Of a stretch of 32,000 bases of DNA, positions 1,736 to 30,335 are shown in pieces. The notes under the pieces were generated by a model. The model worked only from the letters and a program-made list of their open reading frames with translations, did no database searches and was not told where the DNA came from. Source of the DNA: Candidatus Heimdallarchaeota archaeon (GTDB taxonomy: Archaea; Asgardarchaeota; Heimdallarchaeia; Heimdallarchaeales; Heimdallarchaeaceae); the NCBI GenBank assembly GCA_030668875.1, contig DAOVER010000002.1:78706-110705 (forward strand), read 5' to 3'. A program made the translations under genes and the position numbers. Numbering within the stretch: the first letter of the stretch is position 1; each line of letters opens with the position of its first letter.

Positions 1736-1848
1736 ACTAAAACCCATTTTATCTTACTCTGATTAGTCTTAAAAACGTTTTGAGCAGTTTTGTTAAAATA
1801 TTCATACAACTAGTGAGATTTATTAATGCTAGATGTTCAATTATCTCG

Positions 1849-3513
1849 ATGAGAAAAACTCAAGCTTTATTCCTTATTGTTTTGTTTGTCAACTTTCAAT
1901 TTCTCAATGTTGTTATAAATTCTTCAGCGACATTTAATATTAAAAAACAAGAGACACTTGACCCCTATATCTGGTTTTGGGAAGAACTCTCAAATGCTCC
2001 TGGGCAAATTAGTGGCGAGGATGTAGTTTATTGGGGCGAGAATTTGGGACCCTATCACAATTACACGGAATTGACAGAAAAGCTTGTACTTCTAAATAGT
2101 ACTTTTCCTGATATAGTTGACGTATTCTCAATAGGAAAAACTTGGCATAATAATGATGTATGGTGTGTAAAACTAACCAATGAAACAATAACCAGTTCAA
2201 AAACAGAATATTACATCGTAGCAGAACATCATGCTAGAGAATTAATCTCTGTAGAAAATGCACTCTATTTCATAGATAAAATTGTATATGATTCAATCTT
2301 TGGTCTCTATGAGGAGCTATTATCGAGTAGAGAATTATATGTCATTCCTATGTTAAACCCAGATGGTATCTCAATTATTCATTGGTTTCCTGAGCAACGC
2401 AAAAATCTACACCCCATTGACGATGACGGGGATGGGATTAATGACACCGACATGGATGGTTTACTTGATGATGAGCTAGAGAGGACATATTATTGGAATC
2501 CTGCTGCAAATACTTCTGCAATTCGGGAATTTGATTTAGATGGTGATGGGTCAATTGCTGAAGACTTACCTGGGGGTGTCGATCTCAATCGAAATTATGG
2601 AGTTAACTGGGAAGGTACTGGTTCTTCATCAGTTAAAAGAAATCCTCTTTATCGAGGAGCTTATCCATTTAGTGAGAATGAAACTCAAATCATGAGAGAC
2701 TTCATGCGAGAACATGCTTTCAATTTTGCAATTAGTCTTCACAGTGGTATTAAATCTATAATCACACCTTGGGGTCATAATGGTTCCTTACCTTTAGCTG
2801 ATGAAGATGAATTTAATGCATTGCTAGTTGACTTGCAAGATATTCTCCATTGGCCACTTTGGAATGAATCAGGGGGATACCTCACAAATGGTGTGTGGGA
2901 AGATTATTGTTATGCAGCTCATGATATTCTCTGCTTTACCTTAGAGACTTACTATGATATCTGGACGGGGTCATATTTTGATTATTTCAATCCTCCTGGA
3001 AACCAGATTCTATCTAATTGTGAATATGTTTACCCAGCTATGATCTATTTAGCTGAAGAACCAAGATTAACTTATTCCAATAACCTCCCTAGTATAGAAG
3101 TAACTAATCCTTCAACGATTAATCAAGTATTTGAAAATTATACCATTACTTGGACAATGGATGACTTGGATGGAGATAATTTAAATTGTACAGTTTTAGT
3201 ATCCGAAAATGGTTGGAACTGGGATGTTTTGGCTACAAATCTAACAGATCAAACCTCCTTCTTCTGGAATGTAACTTCTGTAGATCCAGGTTCATATTAC
3301 CTAAAAGTCGCTGTATATGATGGAAAGGATTGGATTTCTGATGTTAGTGAAATTAGCTTAAACGTTCGAAATGTAAAACCTCCATCTCCTTTTGCTTTCT
3401 ATATTCTTGCAGGTATTTTTGGTACTCTAGCAGTTGTCTACCTCTTCTTCTATTTACGAAAATCTAAAAATCTTAGCAAGATGTGGGGACCCGAAGATAG
3501 TACTAAAAAGTAA
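1849..3513 (+). CDS. Membrane-anchored M14 zinc carboxypeptidase with Ig/Fn3-like domain
   Basis: HHARE (HxxE zinc motif), LNPDG, DLNRNY, SLHSG and LETY. Signal peptide after the ATG at 1849 (track start is TTG 1780). C-terminal TM FAFYILAGIFGTLAVVYLFFYL followed by RKSK. Confidence 0.9.
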   Translation: MRKTQALFLIVLFVNFQFLNVVINSSATFNIKKQETLDPYIWFWEELSNAPGQISGEDVVYWGENLGPYHNYTELTEKLVLLNSTFPDIVDVFSIGKTWHNNDVWCVKLTNETITSSKTEYYIVAEHHARELISVENALYFIDKIVYDSIFGLYEELLSSRELYVIPMLNPDGISIIHWFPEQRKNLHPIDDDGDGINDTDMDGLLDDELERTYYWNPAANTSAIREFDLDGDGSIAEDLPGGVDLNRNYGVNWEGTGSSSVKRNPLYRGAYPFSENETQIMRDFMREHAFNFAISLHSGIKSIITPWGHNGSLPLADEDEFNALLVDLQDILHWPLWNESGGYLTNGVWEDYCYAAHDILCFTLETYYDIWTGSYFDYFNPPGNQILSNCEYVYPAMIYLAEEPRLTYSNNLPSIEVTNPSTINQVFENYTITWTMDDLDGDNLNCTVLVSENGWNWDVLATNLTDQTSFFWNVTSVDPGSYYLKVAVYDGKDWISDVSEISLNVRNVKPPSPFAFYILAGIFGTLAVVYLFFYLRKSKNLSKMWGPEDSTKK

Positions 3514-3618: not shown

Positions 3619-4716
3619 ATGTTTGACCAAACATATATTCTCTTTAAGTATGTCGTAGCTGTAGCACTAATCTTGGGTGGAGTTGCTGCAACATACTGGG
3701 GAATAAAAAGACAAAATCCATTCTATAAACTATGGGTAGCTTTTCTCATATCTTATGGTATATTTGAAATAATTGAGGTATTAGAAAACCAGAATCCAAC
3801 ATCATTGATTCTTTATCGTGCCTTGCAGATTGTTCAAGCAGTTGCCTTAATTATCCTTTTTGCAGCTTGTTTAGAACAATCTATGACTATTACATCCAGA
3901 GCTAGTAGAATTCTTGCAATCAGTCTATCTACTTTGGCACTTTACTTCATAGTTATTCCGTTAGATGTATCAATAGAGAGTTTCCGAATATTAACTATAT
4001 CAATTTATGGTGTTATTTTTACAGATATTTACGGATTCATTTATGGTTCTTTAATATTAGTAAGCTCCTTCCTCTTGATAGGTGTCTATATACGATACTT
4101 CAAACTTGCATCTTCATCAAAAAGTAGACGAGTGAAGGTAAAACGGGATATAACCTTACTTCTTATTATACTTCTAATTGGATTTGCAGTTCTAGTAACT
4201 ATAAGAAGGAAGATGCTTGAAGCTAATTCTCTAGTTTTTAATATAGCAGATCTTGCATATACCTTCGTTGTTGTCTTAGTAGTTTCATTTTATCAAAGCC
4301 AATCTCTATCTCATGGTATTGAGGCGATTTTAGTTGTAGATAGAGAAGGTAACCCTCTGCTAGGTTACTCCCCTCTCCGAGGTAGAAGGATATCTTTTGA
4401 AGAAAAAATAATAGCAGCTTCAGGATATCTTGCTGGACTTTTTCACTTTGTTCGTGAATATGTTGCTACATCCTCAGAAGAGCAATTCAGAGAATTAAAA
4501 ACTAGTTCCTCTACCATGTCATTCTATGTAGGAGAAAAAATCTTCATTATAATACAAACTAAGATTTCAAGTAAAGTATTAGCTAAAGCCACAAAACTGG
4601 TTATTAAAGAGTTGGATGGCTATCTCATGGATTTCAAAGCAAATAAAATGCTAACAGAGGAGCAAATTGAACATGTACAAACACTACTAAAAGAAAATTT
4701 TACTCTCATGGCTTAA
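3619..4716 (+). CDS. 7TM membrane protein fused to a C-terminal longin-like domain
   Basis: Seven hydrophobic segments in the first ~230 aa. The last ~130 aa follow the longin b-b-a-b-b-b-a-a pattern: IEAILVVD / GNPLLGYS / AASGYLAGLFHFVREY / FRELKT / TMSFYVG / IFIIIQT / two helices. Confidence 0.7.
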   Translation: MFDQTYILFKYVVAVALILGGVAATYWGIKRQNPFYKLWVAFLISYGIFEIIEVLENQNPTSLILYRALQIVQAVALIILFAACLEQSMTITSRASRILAISLSTLALYFIVIPLDVSIESFRILTISIYGVIFTDIYGFIYGSLILVSSFLLIGVYIRYFKLASSSKSRRVKVKRDITLLLIILLIGFAVLVTIRRKMLEANSLVFNIADLAYTFVVVLVVSFYQSQSLSHGIEAILVVDREGNPLLGYSPLRGRRISFEEKIIAASGYLAGLFHFVREYVATSSEEQFRELKTSSSTMSFYVGEKIFIIIQTKISSKVLAKATKLVIKELDGYLMDFKANKMLTEEQIEHVQTLLKENFTLMA

Positions 4717-4767
4717 TCTTGCTCAACTTCACTAAAACTTATATTTTTCAAAGAATTACTATTACTA

Positions 4768-6084
4768 ATGGTTTCAATTTCATTTGTTCTAGGAACAAGA
4801 CCTGAAATAATAAAATTAGCTCCAATAATACATGAAGCTGAGAAAAGAGAGATTTCCTTTAATATAATCCATACAGGTCAACATTACGACATGGAAATGT
4901 CAGAACAATTCTTGGAATCCTTAAACATTCCTTCTCCTGATATTAATCTAGAAGTAAAATCCTTAACTCTCCATGCTCAACTGGGAAATATGGTAGAAAA
5001 GCTAGGAAACTATTATAAGAATAATAAACATGATATTGTGTTAGCTGTAGGTGATACAATAAGTGTTCTAGCAGCTGCTTTAGTTAGTAATCAAAATAAT
5101 ATCCCCTTCGGTCATATTGAAGCTGGTTTGAGATCTTATGATAATACTATGCCTGAAGAAATTAATCGCAGACTTGCAGATAGCATTGCAACACTTCATT
5201 TCGCTCCTTCTGACAGGGCTGTTTTAAACCTCCTAAATGAAGGAATTGAACCTGAAAGAGTATTCAATACAGGAAATACTATAGTAGATGCCATTCGTAT
5301 CTATTCTGCGAAATTATCTAAAAGGAAGACTTCACAGGCTGATAAGATTCTTCAAGATGTAAAAGGAGAATATTCCATTTGTACAATCCACAGAGTATCT
5401 AACGTTGAGAACAAAGAGAACTTGTTAGAAATTATCCAAGCCTTAGAATCTTTTAGAGGATATCTGAAGATCTTTTTATTACATCCTAGAACAGAAAAGA
5501 AGCTGCACGAGTATAAATTATACGATAAATTCAAACAGATCGAAGGGTTACATATATACAAGTCTGTAAATTACATGTCAATGTTGAAGCTACTAACCGA
5601 TGAAAAGTGTCAACTCATTATCACCGATTCAGGAGGTATAATTGAAGAAGCGTCGGTATTGAAAATTCCATGTATAACTATCAGACCAAATACAGAGAGA
5701 CCAGAAACAGTTGAAGGAGGGGTAAACTTTCTTGTACGACCTAAAGCTCTGGAAATTCTTCAAACTATTGAACTTATTTTGTCAGATGAAGATATAATAG
5801 AGAAAATGAAAATATTTACAAATCCATACGGTGATGGCTTTAGTAGTGGTAGGATATTGGACATTATTGAAAATAAGCTTACAAAGATGATATTTCAATC
5901 ACCGGAATCATATAAATTTGGATCAAAGTCATTTTACCTAATAGATATACAAATACCAATGAAAACAGCTTCTTTAGAAGAATTGTATGGATGTACAGTA
6001 ACTATGGTTTATGGTACGGATGGAGAGCCTTTACCAATACCAAAGAAATTAGAAAAAGGATATAGGGTTAAATTAACACTATAG
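4768..6084 (+). CDS. wecB: UDP-N-acetylglucosamine 2-epimerase (non-hydrolysing) with ~60-aa C-terminal extension
   Basis: GTRPEIIKLAP, HTGQHYD, GDT, HIEAGLRS, PEEINR, TIHR, TDSGG(I)IEEA, RPNTERPE and NPYGDG motifs. Confidence 0.95.
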   Translation: MVSISFVLGTRPEIIKLAPIIHEAEKREISFNIIHTGQHYDMEMSEQFLESLNIPSPDINLEVKSLTLHAQLGNMVEKLGNYYKNNKHDIVLAVGDTISVLAAALVSNQNNIPFGHIEAGLRSYDNTMPEEINRRLADSIATLHFAPSDRAVLNLLNEGIEPERVFNTGNTIVDAIRIYSAKLSKRKTSQADKILQDVKGEYSICTIHRVSNVENKENLLEIIQALESFRGYLKIFLLHPRTEKKLHEYKLYDKFKQIEGLHIYKSVNYMSMLKLLTDEKCQLIITDSGGIIEEASVLKIPCITIRPNTERPETVEGGVNFLVRPKALEILQTIELILSDEDIIEKMKIFTNPYGDGFSSGRILDIIENKLTKMIFQSPESYKFGSKSFYLIDIQIPMKTASLEELYGCTVTMVYGTDGEPLPIPKKLEKGYRVKLTL

Positions 6085-7074
6085 CAAGATGTCCCAGCCA
6101 TATATTCTAGCTAGTACATTTAACAAAACTCTAACTGCTGCGAAGATAGCTAAAAACCAAAAACCTGTCAGAATAGCTTCTGATTTTATCTTGTGTAAGA
6201 ATCTTGGAACTATGTTAGCAGTAATTAAAGTTCCTGCTGCCATACAGATTACTATGCCCCAGTGAATATACGATCCAAGAATTAAACGAAGTCCTAAACC
6301 AAAAGGAGTAGCAAATAGGATGGTGAATGTTGATGTAGCCGTTGCAACTGTTGCAGGAAGCCCTAATCCCATAGTCAGTATTGGTACATAGATAACCCCG
6401 CCACCTAAACCTAGGAGAGAACCGATAAATCCACCAAAGGTTGCAATTAATACTCCTGGAAGTAACTTTGCTTTGTATTCGAATTTAGTTCCTCTTTTGT
6501 CTTCTAATTTTCTAAGGAGAATAGTGTGTAACCACCATGGTTTATCCTTCTGACTTTCCGCAATTTCGATTTTATTAATTATTTTTTCTTTTACTGGAAC
6601 CCCTCGCTTTTTCTTACTCCAGCCAATAATAATTGTTGTAATTTTATATCCTGCAATTAAAAGCATTGTAACAGCAAAGATGATTTGATAAAGATCAATA
6701 TCGATACTCTGTTTCTTAATGAACAAATTTGAGAACAATGCTCCAGAAATAGCTCCTGGAATTGCAAAAATCATAAATGTTATAGCTACTCTGAAATCAA
6801 TAAGTTTTTCTCTAATATAGGAAATAGATCCACTTAAAGCTGTTATAATAATCACTCCTAAAGATGTAACTGTTGCTACATCACCAATTTTTAAATTCGG
6901 GTCACCTGTAGCAGAGACAAATTTATCTAGAAGAGCAGGAAACCCAATCAGCAGTATAGGGACGTTAAGTAAACCTCCTCCGATACCAAAAGTAGGAGAA
7001 ATTGTTCCAGATATTAATCCAGCAACGAACAAGAGAAGATAATGCCACCATTCAAATCCAGCAAATATTTCCAT
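6079..7074 (-). CDS. Sulfite exporter TauE/SafE (TSUP) family permease
   Basis: Two GIGGG/GLGGG(V)IYVP glycine-rich repeats, ATVTSL/AATSTF, about 8 TM. Probable ATG at 7074 (track start is GTG 7083). Confidence 0.9.
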   Translation of the reverse strand: MEIFAGFEWWHYLLLFVAGLISGTISPTFGIGGGLLNVPILLIGFPALLDKFVSATGDPNLKIGDVATVTSLGVIIITALSGSISYIREKLIDFRVAITFMIFAIPGAISGALFSNLFIKKQSIDIDLYQIIFAVTMLLIAGYKITTIIIGWSKKKRGVPVKEKIINKIEIAESQKDKPWWLHTILLRKLEDKRGTKFEYKAKLLPGVLIATFGGFIGSLLGLGGGVIYVPILTMGLGLPATVATATSTFTILFATPFGLGLRLILGSYIHWGIVICMAAGTLITANIVPRFLHKIKSEAILTGFWFLAIFAAVRVLLNVLARIYGWDILL

Positions 7075-7189
7075 TAGATGCACCCAATATTAACAATTGA
7101 TTAAAAAGAGTGTTACTTAAAACTTTAATGCTTAAACAAATATCTACAAGTAGAAATTATTTTAAAGTAGTTCGAAGTAGTAATCTCCT

Positions 7190-8059
7190 ATGAGTTCAGA
7201 AAAGGAAAACGCTATTGCTGAGCAGTTTCTTTCTCTAATCGATAAGAAAAATGTTTGGGAATTAGAAATACTTTCATCAATCATTAATATAAATTCTCAA
7301 AATCTAGCTGATTTCATCAAGGATCTGCCTATGGCTTTCGGATTAGCCGTTTCTGGGAAAAAAGTGCATATTACACCTGAACTTGTACGTGATGTTACGT
7401 CTGAAATTAAAGATACTTTTGTTTCCTGGTACCAGAGTACAGTACCCGGAACATACACCCAGTCTTCTTTGCTATCAAATGAGATTATCAGGGAAGATTT
7501 TGCTATGAATTTAAGATTAGAGAAAAAGGCTAAAGTTAAGATTACTATTTATGGTGATAACTTTCTCGTACAAAGAGTTGTTGACAGATACTTAACCAAA
7601 GGAAATTTACAAGTTGCATATAGTTATGAGGGGGGATATGAGCCAATAAATGCAGAAAAAACTATAGGTAATGATATTTTAGAATGTCAATTCAGTGTGA
7701 TAAATTATAGACGTGAAATATCTTCTCTTGCTAATCTTCTCTTTGAATTATCAGAGGGTTTCTTATTGGTTTTCAACCCCTTGGACAAAATGCAAGTAGT
7801 GAAATTAAACGATATGATAAATCTTCTCTCTCAGAAAAGAAGATCTGATTTATTTGTTACTTTTCTAGGTATAATCACTGAAGAAGAAGGACAAGAATCA
7901 ATCACTGAAATCGCAACAGTTCTATCAAAAATGGTTGGGAAACTTGAACATATTCATCAATTTAAAGTGTCTTTTGCAATTCTTTCAGATGAGAGACAAA
8001 TAGAGAGAAAAATAAACGACCTCTTACAAACCTCTCAACTATTGGTTAACAAAGATTGA
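7190..8059 (+). CDS. Winged-helix-like N-domain + degenerate Rab/Ras-like G-domain (pseudo-GTPase)
   Basis: aa ~115-285 align almost gap-free by eye to a Rab consensus (KITIYGD...; QFSVINYRREISSL; EGFLLVFNPLD; VTFLGIITE), but G1, G2, G3 and G4 residues are absent. aa ~8-62 show an a-b-a-a-hairpin wHTH pattern. Confidence 0.55.
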   Translation: MSSEKENAIAEQFLSLIDKKNVWELEILSSIININSQNLADFIKDLPMAFGLAVSGKKVHITPELVRDVTSEIKDTFVSWYQSTVPGTYTQSSLLSNEIIREDFAMNLRLEKKAKVKITIYGDNFLVQRVVDRYLTKGNLQVAYSYEGGYEPINAEKTIGNDILECQFSVINYRREISSLANLLFELSEGFLLVFNPLDKMQVVKLNDMINLLSQKRRSDLFVTFLGIITEEEGQESITEIATVLSKMVGKLEHIHQFKVSFAILSDERQIERKINDLLQTSQLLVNKD

Positions 8060-8061
8060 AA

Positions 8062-8754
8062 TTAACCAGGTCTCATTTCTTCATTTTCAACTAAATGTGG
8101 ATAAGCTCGAAATGCAATGTTTATTGGTATGAAACCTATACTTAGAAGTATTATTGCTACAGCTGTTATTCCTATCCCAATAATGTTTATTATTACTGCT
8201 ACTGCTTCGTTTGAAATTAACCAGCTTATGAAGAATAATGTAAAGGATAGAGACTGAACTCCAAACCCTATCGATAGGAAATGTTTTGGATACTTTACAA
8301 TGACTCTTTTAAGGTAAAGAGATGCCAACTGTTTCTGAAGGAAGAAAAATCCAATAGTATACGCAATACTGGATAATATAAGACATATTCCGCCAAGATA
8401 GATGAGAATGTCAGTGACTATCCACTCTATTAGGATTAATAGAAACAATCCGAGTAGTAATATCCCAGAACCAACAAAAATGAATATAGCAATCTGTTTT
8501 CCACGCTCCCATGCAAATTCGCTTTCATTCCTAAAATTCAGTGCAGCTTTTCCTATTCCAGCTAAGCCAATAATAATCGGTGCGTATAATATTTGTGAAG
8601 CATCCAATCCGTAAAGTACATCAAAAAGACCATTAGCGATAATGTATCCTCCTGACATAAAGTATAATAAAATACCTAATATTACGTAGAAGAAAACAAC
8701 TAGTATGCTCCCACTAGCAAAAAATTTCGAATTTCTATGAAGACTCATTATCAC
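8062..8754 (-). CDS. 6TM hypothetical membrane protein (paralog 3 of tandem triplet)
   Basis: Six hydrophobic segments; FLSIGF and LSIGFIPI resemble motifs in the two upstream genes; start overlaps the upstream stop. Confidence 0.8.
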   Translation of the reverse strand: MIMSLHRNSKFFASGSILVVFFYVILGILLYFMSGGYIIANGLFDVLYGLDASQILYAPIIIGLAGIGKAALNFRNESEFAWERGKQIAIFIFVGSGILLLGLFLLILIEWIVTDILIYLGGICLILSSIAYTIGFFFLQKQLASLYLKRVIVKYPKHFLSIGFGVQSLSFTLFFISWLISNEAVAVIINIIGIGITAVAIILLSIGFIPINIAFRAYPHLVENEEMRPG

Positions 8755-9473
8755 ACCTCTTCCTTATCTTTCTTCTCAACCAAAGTTTTTTCTTCTTCTT
8801 CCAATTCAAGAGATTTATCCTGTCGTTGAATATCTTTCCTCCTTAGTAAGTTTAGTGTGCTTGCTAATTGGAAAAGACCAAGAATTATCATAAATTGAGC
8901 GAATAGGATTAAAGCGAGTATGGTGAATGCTAACCAACTAGGTAATTGTAATTGTTGAGGATAAATATACTCACTATACCAAGACAATACACTTGGAAAG
9001 AATAGAACTAAAAATCCTATGGGAAGAAGAAACTCAGATTTTCTGTTAATATCATTTTTATCTAGCAAGTCATCAAAGAAGAATTTATTTAATGTAAATG
9101 ATGCTACTAATGTTACATAAAAAACAATAATTAAAGCTAGCCTTACGAAGATGACAGGAGAAGAATTCCATATCTCTTCTGTACCAAGAATGTAATAAAG
9201 AATTGTTATGCATATGTCAGATATTGCACTAACTAAAAACATTATACTAATAAGTAACCAAAATTTGAGCTCTCGATTTTCTCTTCCTGCTCGTATGATC
9301 CCTATTACAAATAGTAGAATCACACAATCAAAAGCTACTGATAGAATCAATGGTAAATTTGGATATGAAACTGCAAGCGGAGTTGTATTGCTTATTGTAA
9401 TTATAGTTTGAATCAAAACCATAGTCCAAGTAGCGTAGAAAAGATGTTTTGCAATATCCTTGGACGTATCCAT
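8751..9473 (-). CDS. 6TM hypothetical membrane protein (paralog 2)
   Basis: Probable ATG at 9473 (MDTSKDIAK), 4 nt after the upstream stop; the track start at 9539 overlaps the upstream gene. Six TM; LLPIGF motif; charged tail. Confidence 0.8.
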   Translation of the reverse strand: MDTSKDIAKHLFYATWTMVLIQTIITISNTTPLAVSYPNLPLILSVAFDCVILLFVIGIIRAGRENRELKFWLLISIMFLVSAISDICITILYYILGTEEIWNSSPVIFVRLALIIVFYVTLVASFTLNKFFFDDLLDKNDINRKSEFLLPIGFLVLFFPSVLSWYSEYIYPQQLQLPSWLAFTILALILFAQFMIILGLFQLASTLNLLRRKDIQRQDKSLELEEEEKTLVEKKDKEEV

Positions 9474-9477
9474 TTTT

Positions 9478-10485
9478 TCACCTAGTGATGTAAGGGTTTG
9501 TTTCACCACAATTTGAACAAAATACTGCATCATGTTCAAGTTCTAGACCACATTTGACACAGAACATTTTTTTGCCTTTTAATTCTTCAGGAGGAATTAT
9601 TGTGGACTTGTAATCAATTTCGTCTTCTTTTCTTTGTGAGGGAGCAATGGGTCTTTGTCTACTCAAACCTAGCATTGTCTGTGCAGGTTTCTGAGTTCTT
9701 TGAGCCCTTTGTTGAGTCATTGCAGCCTTCCGGGCTTCTTGTTTTTCAAAGAATCCTTCTGGAAGCTTATCTAGAATGCCATAAGCTCGTCGTAAATACC
9801 AAAAACCCATAATAACCATAACAACAGCTGCAATACCCATGAAATATGCTGTATTCACGAATGCTTCAGATCCTTCATTAGGAACTCTCCTTCCATTAAC
9901 ATCAATGTGTGTTACCGAATCTAAAGGTACTACCATGTACATAACAAACCTCACTAATAGCAATGCATATCCAATTGGGAGGGATAATTGACCTTTGAAG
10001 ATATTTCTCTTTTCCTGTCTAAATCCATCTAAAACCATTTTCATAAATATAAAACCAGCTAGCAAAGAAACATATGAAACAATAGTCAATATGTCGCTAG
10101 TAAGTTCATTGGAATCTGATGTGAGAATTATATTAGTTACAGTTAGACCATCAATTATATGTCCTGGTAAACTGATTAATCCGCCTATGAATACTAGAAT
10201 TGAAGAAAACAACAAATAGATGTTTTTCTCCTCTCTATAGAAGAGAAAGAAACCAACCGCTAACCCTATAATAACTATGTTAGAAACGATATATAATGCA
10301 ACTGAATATAGGCTTATGTCCGCATCTGTATTAAAGAACATTTCAATACCTTTTGCAATCACGATGATCAGTGTAGTCCAAGTTATTATCTTTCTTGTTC
10401 TATTAGAAATTTTTTTCTCGGATTGAACAACTTCTGCAACTGCGATATCTTCACCAGTAAATTGTAGTTTAATTTCTTTTGACAT
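9478..10485 (-). CDS. 6TM membrane protein with C-terminal double zinc ribbon (paralog 1)
   Basis: Six TM, LSLPIGY motif, Q/R-rich linker, C-terminal FCVKCG...FCSNCG. Confidence 0.85.
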   Translation of the reverse strand: MSKEIKLQFTGEDIAVAEVVQSEKKISNRTRKIITWTTLIIVIAKGIEMFFNTDADISLYSVALYIVSNIVIIGLAVGFFLFYREEKNIYLLFSSILVFIGGLISLPGHIIDGLTVTNIILTSDSNELTSDILTIVSYVSLLAGFIFMKMVLDGFRQEKRNIFKGQLSLPIGYALLLVRFVMYMVVPLDSVTHIDVNGRRVPNEGSEAFVNTAYFMGIAAVVMVIMGFWYLRRAYGILDKLPEGFFEKQEARKAAMTQQRAQRTQKPAQTMLGLSRQRPIAPSQRKEDEIDYKSTIIPPEELKGKKMFCVKCGLELEHDAVFCSNCGETNPYITR

Positions 10486-10583
10486 CTAAATTTATCTTGA
10501 CTGCCTAATATTTAAATATGCACAATTATGAGCAATTTCAAAGGTATTATTGTGTTTTTGTATAGTATGAATGAAAACAAAAG

Positions 10584-10599
10584 AGGTAAAGTATATAAG
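10584..10599 (+). promoter_or_regulatory. BRE/TATA-like promoter of the 10623 gene
   Basis: Purine-rich AGGTAAAG followed by TATATAAG (10592-10599), ending 23 nt before the ATG at 10623; spacing fits a leaderless archaeal transcript. Confidence 0.45.
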
Positions 10600-10622
10600 T
10601 ACGTTTTGTCTCTTTTTTTTTG

Positions 10623-11147
10623 ATGAGATTATCTTCCTCTTTGTCGCTGCTAGTTTTTACCTTAGCTTTTTTAAGCGTTCTAACTCCTGCCATGTATGAT
10701 TCTGAGGGATTTGCTCTTAACTGGATTGACATCCATGAATCTCCTGTTCTGTGGATTCTACTTGCAGCAACAATGCTCGTAGGATTACATGATGTTGAAT
10801 TACTTTATGGAATAAAGTTTCTGAGAAGCTCAAATAGTAGAATATTACGTATTTTACTCATTGCAGTAGCTGTAGGTATGTCGTACGCTATGGAATTATC
10901 TGTAAATTACCATTTATCAGGACTTACCTTCTGGACTGGAAGTATCATCTTTCGTTTCCCTGCTAATGCTTCTATACACGATGGTATTGGGATAGGTTAT
11001 CATTTGGTTCGTTTGTGCCGTATCATATTGCTCTTTGGCCTTCTCGAAGCTCTTATTGAGAAAGATCCTAAGAAAGGTAGTATCCATATTGAAAAATTAT
11101 ATGAAGATTCCTTCACAAAGGATAAGAAGAAGGAAAACAGTTTTTAA
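10623..11147 (+). CDS. Hypothetical membrane protein (~4 TM)
   Basis: 174-aa ORF with hydrophobic segments and a charged C-terminus; TATA-like box at the expected distance. Confidence 0.65.
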   Translation: MRLSSSLSLLVFTLAFLSVLTPAMYDSEGFALNWIDIHESPVLWILLAATMLVGLHDVELLYGIKFLRSSNSRILRILLIAVAVGMSYAMELSVNYHLSGLTFWTGSIIFRFPANASIHDGIGIGYHLVRLCRIILLFGLLEALIEKDPKKGSIHIEKLYEDSFTKDKKKENSF

Positions 11148-11190
11148 TTGAAGTTGACCTTACTTCAATATAAAACCCCATTTGATTGTG

Positions 11191-12249
11191 ATGACAGATA
11201 CAATATTTATTCCCTATGTCTCATTGCTAGTCTTAGATGAGATGGGGATGACTTTAAGAAGTTCTATATCCAACCCAGATATCTCAAGAGAAGAAATAAT
11301 GGGGATGGGAAATTTCTACAGTCCAGTTATATCTGCTTCATCACCCAATCTAGAGATTTATGGACCATTACCCATTCCACATTTTGGGAAATATCATCTA
11401 CTTATTGTGTCTTTTCGCAAAGCTGATTCTGAAAATAGAGTAATGAGATCAAAGGCTACAGACAATTTGTCATTCTGTCAATTACTAATTATCTATGACA
11501 AAAAATGCGACCAGAAAGTAAAATTTGGTCATAGCAAAATCTATGATACCGTTGAATCTTTCTTACAGCAATTTACAGACATCAAACAAATAACTGATAA
11601 TAGTTTGATTTTTCTAAGTGAGTCGCTTATTGAAAACATCTTGCTAGATGAACAGATAAAGTCAAAGAGTTTAGAGGATGTTGTACGTGACATAGCTTCT
11701 CGTTTTAATACAATTCAACAAATTTCTAACCTTCTTAATCGAAGAACCAAAATAGGGATTATTACTTCTGACTCGCTTTCTTATAACCTAATAATTCAGT
11801 CCCTTTTCCATTATCAGAATATAGATTTTATCTATGAATTTAGTAGAAATGAGTTTATTAGCAGAATTGATACATATTTTATGAGAATAGTGTTGACACT
11901 TCTATTTGACTTAGAAACGATTGCTGGAAAAGAGTATTTTAGAGAGATGGACTATTATATCTATTTAGCTTCATGTGAGGATATAACATCAGCTACTAGA
12001 CATATAAGAAATATTGATGAATTGAAAAAACGTGATCCTAAATCAAAAATCTTCTTAGTTACCTTTGAGAAAGCAGAGCAAATAGATTTAAACGTTAAAA
12101 AGGCTCTTTTTGCTGAATCAGAACGTAGGAAGAATGTTCAACTAATGATAACGGTTGGAGATTTGTTTAGAACTTTAGACAATGCGGTGTATTTGATACT
12201 TAACGATGTATTAGAGTTAAGAAATATTCTTCTTTCAACAAATATTTGA
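11191..12249 (+). CDS. uDENN/longin-like N-domain + degenerate Rag-like G-domain
   Basis: N-domain has LLVLDEMG, IYGPLPIP, YHLLIVSF and LLIIY. C-domain has KIGII, EYFREMDYYIYLAS and LKKRDPKSKIFLVTFEKAE, resembling Rag/Gtr1 (LRKYSPDAKIFVLLHKMD) but without GKS/T or DxxG. Probable ATG at 11191 (track start is TTG 11182). Confidence 0.5.
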   Translation: MTDTIFIPYVSLLVLDEMGMTLRSSISNPDISREEIMGMGNFYSPVISASSPNLEIYGPLPIPHFGKYHLLIVSFRKADSENRVMRSKATDNLSFCQLLIIYDKKCDQKVKFGHSKIYDTVESFLQQFTDIKQITDNSLIFLSESLIENILLDEQIKSKSLEDVVRDIASRFNTIQQISNLLNRRTKIGIITSDSLSYNLIIQSLFHYQNIDFIYEFSRNEFISRIDTYFMRIVLTLLFDLETIAGKEYFREMDYYIYLASCEDITSATRHIRNIDELKKRDPKSKIFLVTFEKAEQIDLNVKKALFAESERRKNVQLMITVGDLFRTLDNAVYLILNDVLELRNILLSTNI

Positions 12250-28860: not shown

Positions 28861-30228
28861 TTGAGCATGAAAAAACAAGAACATGATGACTCTTTAACTG
28901 AGATTAAAAAAGCACGGAAATACTTGGAAGAATCTCAGAAAAATCTAGCTAGATTAAAGAGTGGAAAAGGAGTAAAAAGAAAGTTCCGTTTTATGTTGAA
29001 GGAAAATACTTTGCTAGTAATACTCCTATCACTTTTGCTTATATTATCTATAGTTCTACCCGTTTTCTTCCTCAGACCCGACCCTATAATTAGAGATCCT
29101 ATGCAAGAGCATGTTGATACTACAATCAATCTGATACTAACAAATTTTACAGACAACTCTGGATTACCAATTTTTAATGAAACCCTACAAACTCCATCAT
29201 CTGAGCTATTAATCCTCTCCTCTCTTACTTATTCATTAATATCTCAAGCAGGATTTGAGCATGATCAAGAGGATTTTCAAGCCAAAATATCTCAAATTAT
29301 CAATACTTTAGAGAATGATACATTTGTTACTTATGAAAATCGAAGTGAACCATTACAAATTTTCTATCAATTTTTAGGACTCTATGCATTACTTCAAAGC
29401 AAGTTTATTCTAGACGCAAGTTTAGATATCATTAGTTCTGCTATGATACAGAATGTTCTTGTAAAAACTCTTGATTCCTATTTGTCCAATGAAAAATGGC
29501 TAATTATTCAACCAAGTAGTAATTCGAGCTACTTAATAGATCAAGCAATGGCAATATGGGGACTTGCCTCTTATAGACTACTAACAGGGAATAGCTGGGT
29601 ATCTGGATATCATTTTGAAGGTTTAATCCAAGACCTATTAGACTCCGTGTCAGAATTTTTCTTTAATTCTACAACTAATATCCTTTATCAAGAATATGAT
29701 CACTCAGTAAACGAAAGTAGAAATCATGCGGAAGTTGAGGATCTAATATTCTTTACAGTTGCTTTAGCCAAAGCAGAAAGATTATACACCTATTTTGATA
29801 AAAGCAGCTACAATGTTCATCAACAAATAATAAACGATTTTGTTGATGATGAATGGTTTGTTCATGCCATTAATACTTCTGACGAGGAAGTTTATATCAA
29901 AAATCAAGCTTTTTTCACTTTGGTTTCTTATCTGTTGAATCTTGGAAATGTAGGTATTGAAGTACAAAATAAAATTACAGAAAGCTTTTCGATGAACAAA
30001 GGTTTTATTGAGAAAGTTGGTGAGGAAGACATCACTTGTCAATCCTGTTTATATGGTTTGGTAGCTCTTGCTAGCAAGAACTGGAGCGTAATAGAGAATG
30101 AACGAGAGTCTGTAAATATTCCCTCATCAACTGCTTCTTCTCCTATTTTAATTTCTATAGTATTTATAGTGATAGCAGTAGTAATCAAGGTTTGGAGAAG
30201 GAAAATAGTAGTAAAAAGTAGATGGTGA
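28861..30228 (+). CDS. Membrane protein with N- and C-terminal TM helices and a helical (possibly alpha/alpha-toroid) ectodomain
   Basis: TM at ~aa 50-70 and at the C-terminus (then RRK). YLIDQAMAIWGLASYRLLTG resembles six-hairpin glycosidase helices (weak). Confidence 0.7.
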   Translation: MSMKKQEHDDSLTEIKKARKYLEESQKNLARLKSGKGVKRKFRFMLKENTLLVILLSLLLILSIVLPVFFLRPDPIIRDPMQEHVDTTINLILTNFTDNSGLPIFNETLQTPSSELLILSSLTYSLISQAGFEHDQEDFQAKISQIINTLENDTFVTYENRSEPLQIFYQFLGLYALLQSKFILDASLDIISSAMIQNVLVKTLDSYLSNEKWLIIQPSSNSSYLIDQAMAIWGLASYRLLTGNSWVSGYHFEGLIQDLLDSVSEFFFNSTTNILYQEYDHSVNESRNHAEVEDLIFFTVALAKAERLYTYFDKSSYNVHQQIINDFVDDEWFVHAINTSDEEVYIKNQAFFTLVSYLLNLGNVGIEVQNKITESFSMNKGFIEKVGEEDITCQSCLYGLVALASKNWSVIENERESVNIPSSTASSPILISIVFIVIAVVIKVWRRKIVVKSRW

Positions 30229-30335
30229 CCGAGACAAGATTCGAACTCGCGACCACGTGCAATTTGGTTTCACTAAGGAATAGGTCTTAATGATAATCCC
30301 CAAGCACGCATCCTACCAAACTAGACTACCCGGTC
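30223..30335 (-). tRNA. tRNA-Pro(GGG) with 36-nt intron at 37/38 (intron 30262-30297); CCA encoded
   Basis: Acceptor GACCGGG/CTCGGTC, D-arm GTCT/GGAT, anticodon stem CGTGC/GCACG, anticodon GGG (30301-30299), T-loop TTCGAAT, A73-CCA. Canonical BHB: TTGG pairs with intron CCAA between two 3-nt bulges; intron stem TCATTAAG/CTTAGTGA. Confidence 0.95.

Follow-up and report, generated by a model that had tools for sequence, protein, structure and literature searches.

Asgard genomes encode dozens of small GTPases and longin/roadblock proteins. To our knowledge, genome layout points to partners for almost none of these proteins, which blocks work on the origins of eukaryotic membrane trafficking. 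In eukaryotes, longin/DENN complexes at the lysosome serve as GTPase-activating proteins (GAPs) for Rag or Arf GTPases, and there are pseudo-GTPase scaffolds such as CENP-M and the pseudo-G domains of p190RhoGAP; so far as we know, pseudo-GTPases have been discussed mainly for eukaryotes. Here we describe a gene cluster from a 3.2-Mb metagenome-assembled genome (92% complete) of the archaeal family Heimdallarchaeaceae. The cluster lies in a 32,000-nucleotide stretch of DNA (the window; contig positions 78706-110705) and encodes several membrane proteins together with two proteins, 7190 and 11191, in which a domain of clear (7190) or probable (11191) G-protein fold has lost its nucleotide motifs (genes without a name are called by their first nucleotide in the window). 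A preliminary description of the window had seen here a candidate signaling system of dead GTPase domains and longin modules; the folds of 7190 and of the 11191 longin hold on structural models, and the neighborhood recurs in related genomes.

The closest published systems are Asgard proteins in which a longin or roadblock domain is fused to a GTPase (Tran et al. 2024, PMC10933270). Like the longin-GTPase fusions, 11191 pairs a longin with an Arf/Rag-like G domain, but the published proteins have recognizable GTPase domains with Pfam Arf/Ras matches, whereas the examined members of the 11191 family have neither the motifs nor a Pfam match. In MK-D1, longin genes do not as a rule share operons with GTPase genes (PMC10933270), a pattern unlike that of the examined 11191-family members, which are paired with Arf in an operon-like manner. 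A class of Heimdall longins resembling the GAP longins of FLCN and SMCR8 has also been published, and GAP-type longins of the FLCN/SMCR8/NPRL2 class carry a GP motif at the start of β2, beside the arginine finger (PMC12290439). In a full-text literature search on Asgard longin and GTPase terms, we found no description of motif-less versions, of the tandem pairing with Arf or of an Arf-less membrane cluster.

We propose, with a probability of about 40%, that the cluster encodes a conserved, Heimdallarchaeaceae-specific, membrane-associated assembly that itself contains no functional GTPase. Two nucleotide-free G-like domains, with the longin or longins, would build a fixed platform for docking on the membrane proteins, in the manner of Ragulator or of longin heterodimers, and this platform would be a constitutive adaptor or would recruit or regulate one of the genome's intact Arf-like GTPases in trans. 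In the branch to which 11191 belongs, the Arf neighbor would have given way to the small membrane protein 10620, and the other nearby G-fold protein, 7190, appears to be dead as well. The most economical mechanism would be a platform docked at the membrane and independent of nucleotide, of which trans regulation of an Arf-like GTPase would be a close variant; we infer the physical assembly, the membrane docking and any signaling role.

We placed the G-domain and longin motifs on AlphaFold2 (AF2) models and compared structures by Foldseek and by an exhaustive VIA search. The model of 7190 (17 homologues; predicted local distance difference test [pLDDT] score of 76) has a winged helix at residues 1 to 84, followed by a disordered linker, and residues 116 to 286 run in the canonical small-GTPase order of six strands and five helices (b1a1b2b3a2b4a3b5a4b6a5). 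Foldseek matched the protein to Rab11/Rab8 (E of 2e-7, TM score of 0.7), and the top 50 VIA matches of residues 113 to 289 were all G proteins, among them RASL12 (Z of 17.3), Sec4 (17.0) and Rab28 (16.9), with RagD and an Asgard RagA-like protein both at 16.4. As modeled, the fold is that of the Ras superfamily, with Rab-like inseparable from Ras-like or Rag-like. The preliminary description had called 7190 a winged helix-turn-helix protein with a Rab-like G domain lacking all G motifs; the fold and the loss of G1, G3 and G4 stand, whereas the matches do not single out Rab in particular.

The motif loss extends through the 17 homologues of 7190, down to 38% identity. The G1 position between β1 and α1 reads GDNFLVQR instead of GxxxxGK[ST], and 16 of the 17 homologues have other residues at the second Gly, at the Lys and at the Ser/Thr, the exception retaining the Lys alone. 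At the G3 position after β3 the family has N/D-Y-x-R (NYRR in the window), with an invariant Arg where Gly belongs, and the sequence after β5, at G4, is variable and without NKxD. No match to Pfam Ras, Arf or Roc was found for 7190 at E values up to 1. The family has new invariant motifs, such as GGYEP in the switch I region. An intact paralogue family of winged-helix GTPases has a winged helix homologous to the one in 7190 (hhalign 94%, E of 9e-8). This intact, 304-residue family (301 to 307 residues) scores above threshold with Pfam Ras (2.9e-9), and its members (L001:595-1512, on contig C89 of G000, and L020-L028) have a P-loop ending in GKQS, DIPP replacing DxxG, and NKxD or TKxD. On these comparisons, 7190 is a diverged, motif-less offshoot of the winged-helix GTPase family. 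Its ratio of nonsynonymous to synonymous substitutions (dN/dS), 0.14 to 0.21 against three close relatives, shows that it is a functional gene and not a decaying one.

The AF2 model of 11191 (pLDDT of 71) has the β-β-α-β-β-β-α-α topology of a longin domain at residues 5 to 155. The best match of this part was a solved structure, the longin of a Lokiarchaeal protein that joins roadblock and longin domains (8yqg; Foldseek E of 3e-5, VIA Z of 13.9), and among eukaryotic longins the VIA search gave Lst4 (Z of 11.7), FLCN (10.4) and C9orf72 (10.3). On the model, the N-terminal domain is a longin of the folliculin/C9orf72 type; the Pfam Folliculin model run over the window's genome returned noise only. 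For residues 159 to 349 the best VIA matches were Arf1 (Z of 9.7), Sar1 (9.4) and the Hodarchaeal HodArfR1 (9.2), with unrelated flavodoxin-like folds at 7.6 to 7.9 and LokiRagO at 7.6. In an hhalign comparison with an Arf alignment, the C-terminal domain was collinear over 156 columns with the lost motifs in register (P of 0.006), and the G domain of 7190, which is structurally certain, scored about alike against the Arf profile (P of 0.003). We put G-domain ancestry for this domain at roughly two in three. The nucleotide motifs are gone, with TSDSLSYN at the P-loop, D240-x5-G246 at DxxG and T-F-E-K at NKxD, and distant relatives are altered likewise. Nothing follows the last helix and the order is longin and then G-like domain, so the protein is without the C-terminal roadblock domain of Rag/Gtr proteins. 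Of the earlier label, uDENN-like plus a degenerate Rag-like G domain, the longin fold and the motif loss survive, but Arf/Sar-like fits the second domain better than Rag-like. As in eukaryotic pseudo-GTPases, the G fold of 7190 and 11191 appears to have been retained under selection after the loss of the G motifs; unlike those, the present proteins belong to a prokaryotic, membrane-linked setting in which genes for two distinct dead G domains are neighbors.

A profile of 11191 searched against 1.8 billion representatives returned 56 clusters, and relatives of about 350 residues align over both domains. When we looked among 20 distant relatives for versions with an intact GTPase, Pfam gave no match, and a P-loop was present in none of the eight that were read. 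An intact Arf gene adjoins the relative on the same strand in all four loci inspected (L005, L006, L015 and L031), two of which also have a multi-helix membrane protein. These loci define a Heimdall Arf cassette, operon-like in layout, that consists of an approximately 290-residue soluble protein, an approximately 290-residue multi-helix membrane protein, an intact Arf and the approximately 350-residue longin/dead-G protein (coordinates in Table 1). At L006 the order is Arf, the soluble protein (289 residues), the membrane protein, the 11191 relative and a second Arf; the soluble, "DENN-like" protein there has only a subthreshold match to Pfam GAP1-M.

The cassette and the window share a longin/dead-G protein that is homologous over both domains (profile E values down to 2e-20), and multi-helix membrane proteins occur in both settings. 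Unlike the cassette, the window has no intact Arf in tandem and no DENN-like protein, and its membrane proteins are unrelated in sequence: no homology was detected between them and the 292-residue membrane protein of the cassette, and the window's genome yielded no orthologue of either the DENN-like or the membrane protein of the cassette. What the window has beyond the cassette is another dead GTPase, equipped with a winged helix, the three membrane paralogues and 3619, whose seven or so helices are joined to a candidate roadblock/longin-type domain. In a maximum-likelihood tree, proteins of the 11191 type form a clade with 100/100 support inside the family, on a long stem of 1.58 changes per site. 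We are unsure of the exact sister of this clade, since the branches are long and its joining to P0121 may be long-branch attraction. We also considered 11191 as a simple orthologue of the cassette protein of genus g5 (the genera are introduced below) and rejected this, since 11191 falls in the separate long-branch clade. By these comparisons, 11191 is apparently an Arf-less offshoot of a family that is encoded beside an intact Arf in every other locus examined. The place taken by Arf in those loci is held by 10620, the immediate upstream neighbor of 11191, on the same strand, wherever the cluster occurs in the genomes compared. With about four hydrophobic segments, 10620 is the four-helix protein that had been anticipated, and no relatives beyond its own orthologues were detectable.

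The seven hydrophobic segments (approximately) of 3619 in the hydropathy profile agree with the seven-helix part described previously. The C-terminal domain (residues 226 to 365) has 33 invariant positions, including VD.EGNP in what the alignment suggests is the β1-β2 loop, so that an invariant G-N-P stands where GAP-type longins have GP; the fold is a candidate only. Pfam Intu_longin_1 matched below threshold in 4 of 18 members (best E of 0.0026), and hhalign comparisons with the 11191 longin profile (P of 0.005 to 0.015) and with the genome's own roadblock proteins (P of 6e-4) were both weak. Two predicted C-terminal helices, read from sequence, favor a longin arrangement. The Robl_LC7 model found seven other genes of the genome and missed 3619, a profile of the domain found nothing below an E of 0.16 among PDB sequences, and a search of the window's genome for paralogues of the domain returned only 3619 itself. 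Among 82 genomes of the class, 3619 is present only in the window's own family, with a dN/dS of 0.10 to 0.16.

The three minus-strand membrane genes were proposed to be six-helix paralogues, a relationship borne out at the profile level (hhalign 95 to 98%, E of 2e-12 to 4e-8) and one to which pairwise BLAST is nearly blind. Paralogue 3 had been credited with a double zinc ribbon and has instead a single four-Cys ribbon, which is kept in 13/13 orthologues. The listed TTG start of paralogue 2 at 9539 makes it overlap the upstream gene by 62 nt; the ATG at 9473, probably the real start, gives a 240-residue product (orthologues have 222 to 257 residues) and a 4-nt gap to the upstream gene.

To follow the cluster through the family, we compared five genera of Heimdallarchaeaceae (g1 to g5, g1 being the genus of the window). 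In three of them (g1, g2 and g4) the set stays together, the rearrangement in g4 notwithstanding. The window, g2 and the 11 other g1 loci that were compared (most at 47 to 71% identity) share one gene order. Identity is 25 to 46% in g4, where seven genes and TauE are contiguous, in the order 3619, the three paralogues, 10620, 11191, 7190 and TauE; there TauE and 7190, still divergent, have moved as one inverted block, and 7190 now abuts 11191. The g5 locus has 3619, TauE and the three paralogues and jointly lacks 7190, 10620 and 11191. In the fragmented g3 genome we found no 7190 and no gene of the 11191 type. The cluster thus consists of two modules: module A (3619, the TSUP permease and the three six-helix paralogues) is present in four of the five genera, the fifth being too fragmented to tell, and module B (10620-11191 plus 7190) is present or missing as a unit. 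The wecB gene is absent from the cluster in g4 and g5 and is a lineage-specific insertion outside the conserved set. Both dead-GTPase genes are under purifying selection: 11191, at a dN/dS of 0.05 to 0.07, is the most constrained gene of the cluster, and neighboring enzymes have values of 0.06 to 0.11, to be compared with the higher range given above for 7190.

The distribution of module B is complementary to that of the cassette, since the gene for the cassette's DENN-like protein occurs only in g3 and g5 and module B only in g1, g2 and g4; the two sets replace each other between genera. A further g4 locus (L029:4832-6480, genome G029) has an Arf gene split in two, with DVDGQ for DVGGQ, and a longin/dead-G gene in three pieces, and the cassette's DENN-like and membrane genes are absent from it. 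This is apparently a broken remnant of the cassette, although sequencing error is possible. That the dead-G/longin platform took over the role of the Arf switch cassette in most Heimdallarchaeaceae seems to us improbable. If it were true, prokaryotes would have, in this platform, an equivalent of Ragulator/Rag-like or longin-heterodimer scaffolds that works independently of nucleotide, and pseudo-GTPase scaffolding would predate eukaryotes. The more limited proposition that the dead-G proteins are scaffolds would, if correct, give an archaeal precedent for pseudo-GTPases, tied to membrane proteins. The locus and the Arf-linked relatives of 11191 provide named candidate partnerships, and sister genera with a live Arf cassette and genera with dead G domains only provide a natural comparison.

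Several observations weigh against a membrane-associated assembly. Only five genera were sampled, two of them by a single genome, one of which is badly fragmented. The cluster is split among five transcription units on both strands, and the genes that flank it (an M14 peptidase, an alpha/beta hydrolase, a membrane protein and a peroxiredoxin) are collinear between genera too, so that much of the synteny could be simple inheritance within one family. On the structural side, residues 208 to 239 of 11191, where β2, β3 and switch II are expected, are poorly modeled (pLDDT below 50). A whole-protein Atlas match of 11191 to C9orf72 is weak (TM score of 0.39), with SMCR8 and Avl9-type proteins also matching, and Foldseek gave alignments of 224 to 231 columns to DENND10 and C9orf72. 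We judge a core-DENN-like reading of the modeled C-terminal domain to be less likely than a G-derived domain; in the VIA search FLCN and C9orf72 aligned through the longin part alone, and the model has no helical dDENN bundle. Finally, the C-terminal domain of 3619 is, by its sequence, a candidate member of the roadblock/longin superfamily.

A serious rival is that the genes have no joint function and are neighbors by inherited gene order in one archaeal family, each protein acting alone or with partners encoded elsewhere. The collinearity of the outside flanks in g1, g2 and g4, and partly in g5, is what inherited order would give, as is the scatter over five transcription units, and 3619 and the paralogues persist in g5 without module B. 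Yet the g4 rearrangement left the moved pair inside the cluster, beside 11191; wecB came and went while the other genes were not scattered; and 7190 and 10620-11191 are jointly present or absent. The g4 cluster, moreover, holds together at a level of protein identity (25 to 46%) at which archaeal gene order outside functional units has usually eroded. We regard inherited order alone as doubtful, and a membrane scaffold as plausible.

A second alternative keeps the switch and places it elsewhere: 11191, and perhaps 3619, would be a working GAP, guanine nucleotide exchange factor or effector of an unlinked, intact Arf-like GTPase in a switch-dependent system. Each examined relative of 11191 has an intact Arf gene in tandem, at least 17 Arf-like matches occur elsewhere in the window's genome, and no gene of the cluster is under stronger constraint than 11191. 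Its longin best matches the Lst4, FLCN and C9orf72 types, which in eukaryotes are longins of GAP complexes (PMC12290439), and like FLCN-FNIP, C9orf72-SMCR8 and GATOR1 NPRL2-NPRL3 (longin Z of 10.3 to 11.7 in the comparison above), 11191 combines such a longin with an association with the Arf family and with membranes. Unlike those complexes, however, 11191 has no helical dDENN, and its C-terminal domain is closer to Arf/Sar than to core DENN; there is no client GTPase in the window. Nor does 11191 have the GP motif, the invariant G19 before β2 being followed by Met, Leu or Ile, and Arg23 is conserved in the close family only. The long stem branch in the tree suggests a change of partner or function. 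We consider a working regulator unlikely. It is very unlikely that 7190 is instead a winged-helix transcription regulator of the divergent TSUP gene, with a dead G domain that senses or dimerizes and has nothing to do with the longin proteins, for although 7190 has an N-terminal winged helix and stays divergently paired with TauE in g1, g2 and g4, the two genes moving as a block, the g4 orthologues have no winged helix and are still paired with TauE, the winged helix resembles protein-binding versions of the PCI/DDRGK type (Pfam DDRGK subthreshold, E of 0.0017) and is common to the intact GTPase paralogue family, and g5 has TauE without 7190.

Table 1. Genes of the cluster in the window, and loci of the Heimdall Arf cassette
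Feature	Coordinates	Strand	Description
3619	3619..4716	+	Membrane protein, ~7 helices (hydropathy), with a conserved 140-residue C-terminal domain (nt 4294-4716)
wecB, UDP-GlcNAc 2-epimerase	4768..6084	+	Pfam Epimerase_2, 2.6e-105
TauE/SafE (TSUP) permease	6079..7083	-	Pfam 4.6e-35; divergent from 7190, 106 bp between
7190	7190..8059	+	Winged helix (nt 7190-7441); predicted Ras-superfamily G-fold domain (nt 7526-8056); pseudo-GTPase
Membrane paralogue 1	8062..8754	-	~6 helices (hydropathy); related to the other two by hhalign
Membrane paralogue 2	8751..9473	-	~6 helices; listed open reading frame 8751-9539 with TTG start
Membrane paralogue 3	9478..10485	-	Low-complexity tail; C-terminal four-Cys zinc ribbon (Pfam Zn_Ribbon_1, 2.3e-5)
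10620	10620..11147	+	Small protein, ~4 helices (hydropathy)
11191	11191..12249 (open reading frame also from 11182)	+	Predicted longin (nt 11203-11655); Arf/Sar-like alpha/beta domain (nt 11665-12237)
Cassette loci	L015:2516-6059 (g5); L006:5680-9670; L031:5515-8062; L005:1-1639		Partial forms in L006, L031 and L005

The open reading frames of the preliminary description are all present at the coordinates it gave, and its identifications of wecB and the TSUP permease were correct. By spacing and strand, the genes fall into the units 3619-wecB, TauE, 7190, 9478-8751-8062 and 10620-11191, separated at two points by divergent intergenic regions (106 and 134 bp). It had been stated that the region is not one operon because its genes lie on both strands and are interrupted by wecB and the TSUP gene. 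The two strands and the insertion of wecB are as stated, but the TSUP gene, present in the cluster of g1, g2, g4 and g5, is a constant neighbor and not an interruption. Pfam searches of the region's proteins gave matches only to wecB, TauE and a zinc ribbon, and NCBIfam recognized none of the unknown proteins of the cluster. In a search of sequencing runs, the stretch was found only in marine-sediment DNA runs, possibly the source of the assembly, and no RNA run was listed.

Some minor observations concern the surroundings of the cluster. In the congeneric genome G004, two tandem copies of TauE lie between wecB and the 7190 orthologue (L017:4150-6151). The M14-type carboxypeptidase-like protein encoded at positions 1780-3513 of the window (plus strand) has a C-terminal membrane anchor, and its gene is directly upstream of 3619 in g1, g2 and g4 and not in g5. 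Outside the window, 152 nt upstream, lies an open reading frame of 299 residues (L018:15656-16555) that gave no Pfam match at an E of 0.01 and does not resemble the DENN-like protein of the cassette. Introns are common in archaeal tRNA genes, and a tRNA match on the minus strand at positions 30226-30335 of the window, which covers 71 model positions over 110 bases, probably has an intron inside.

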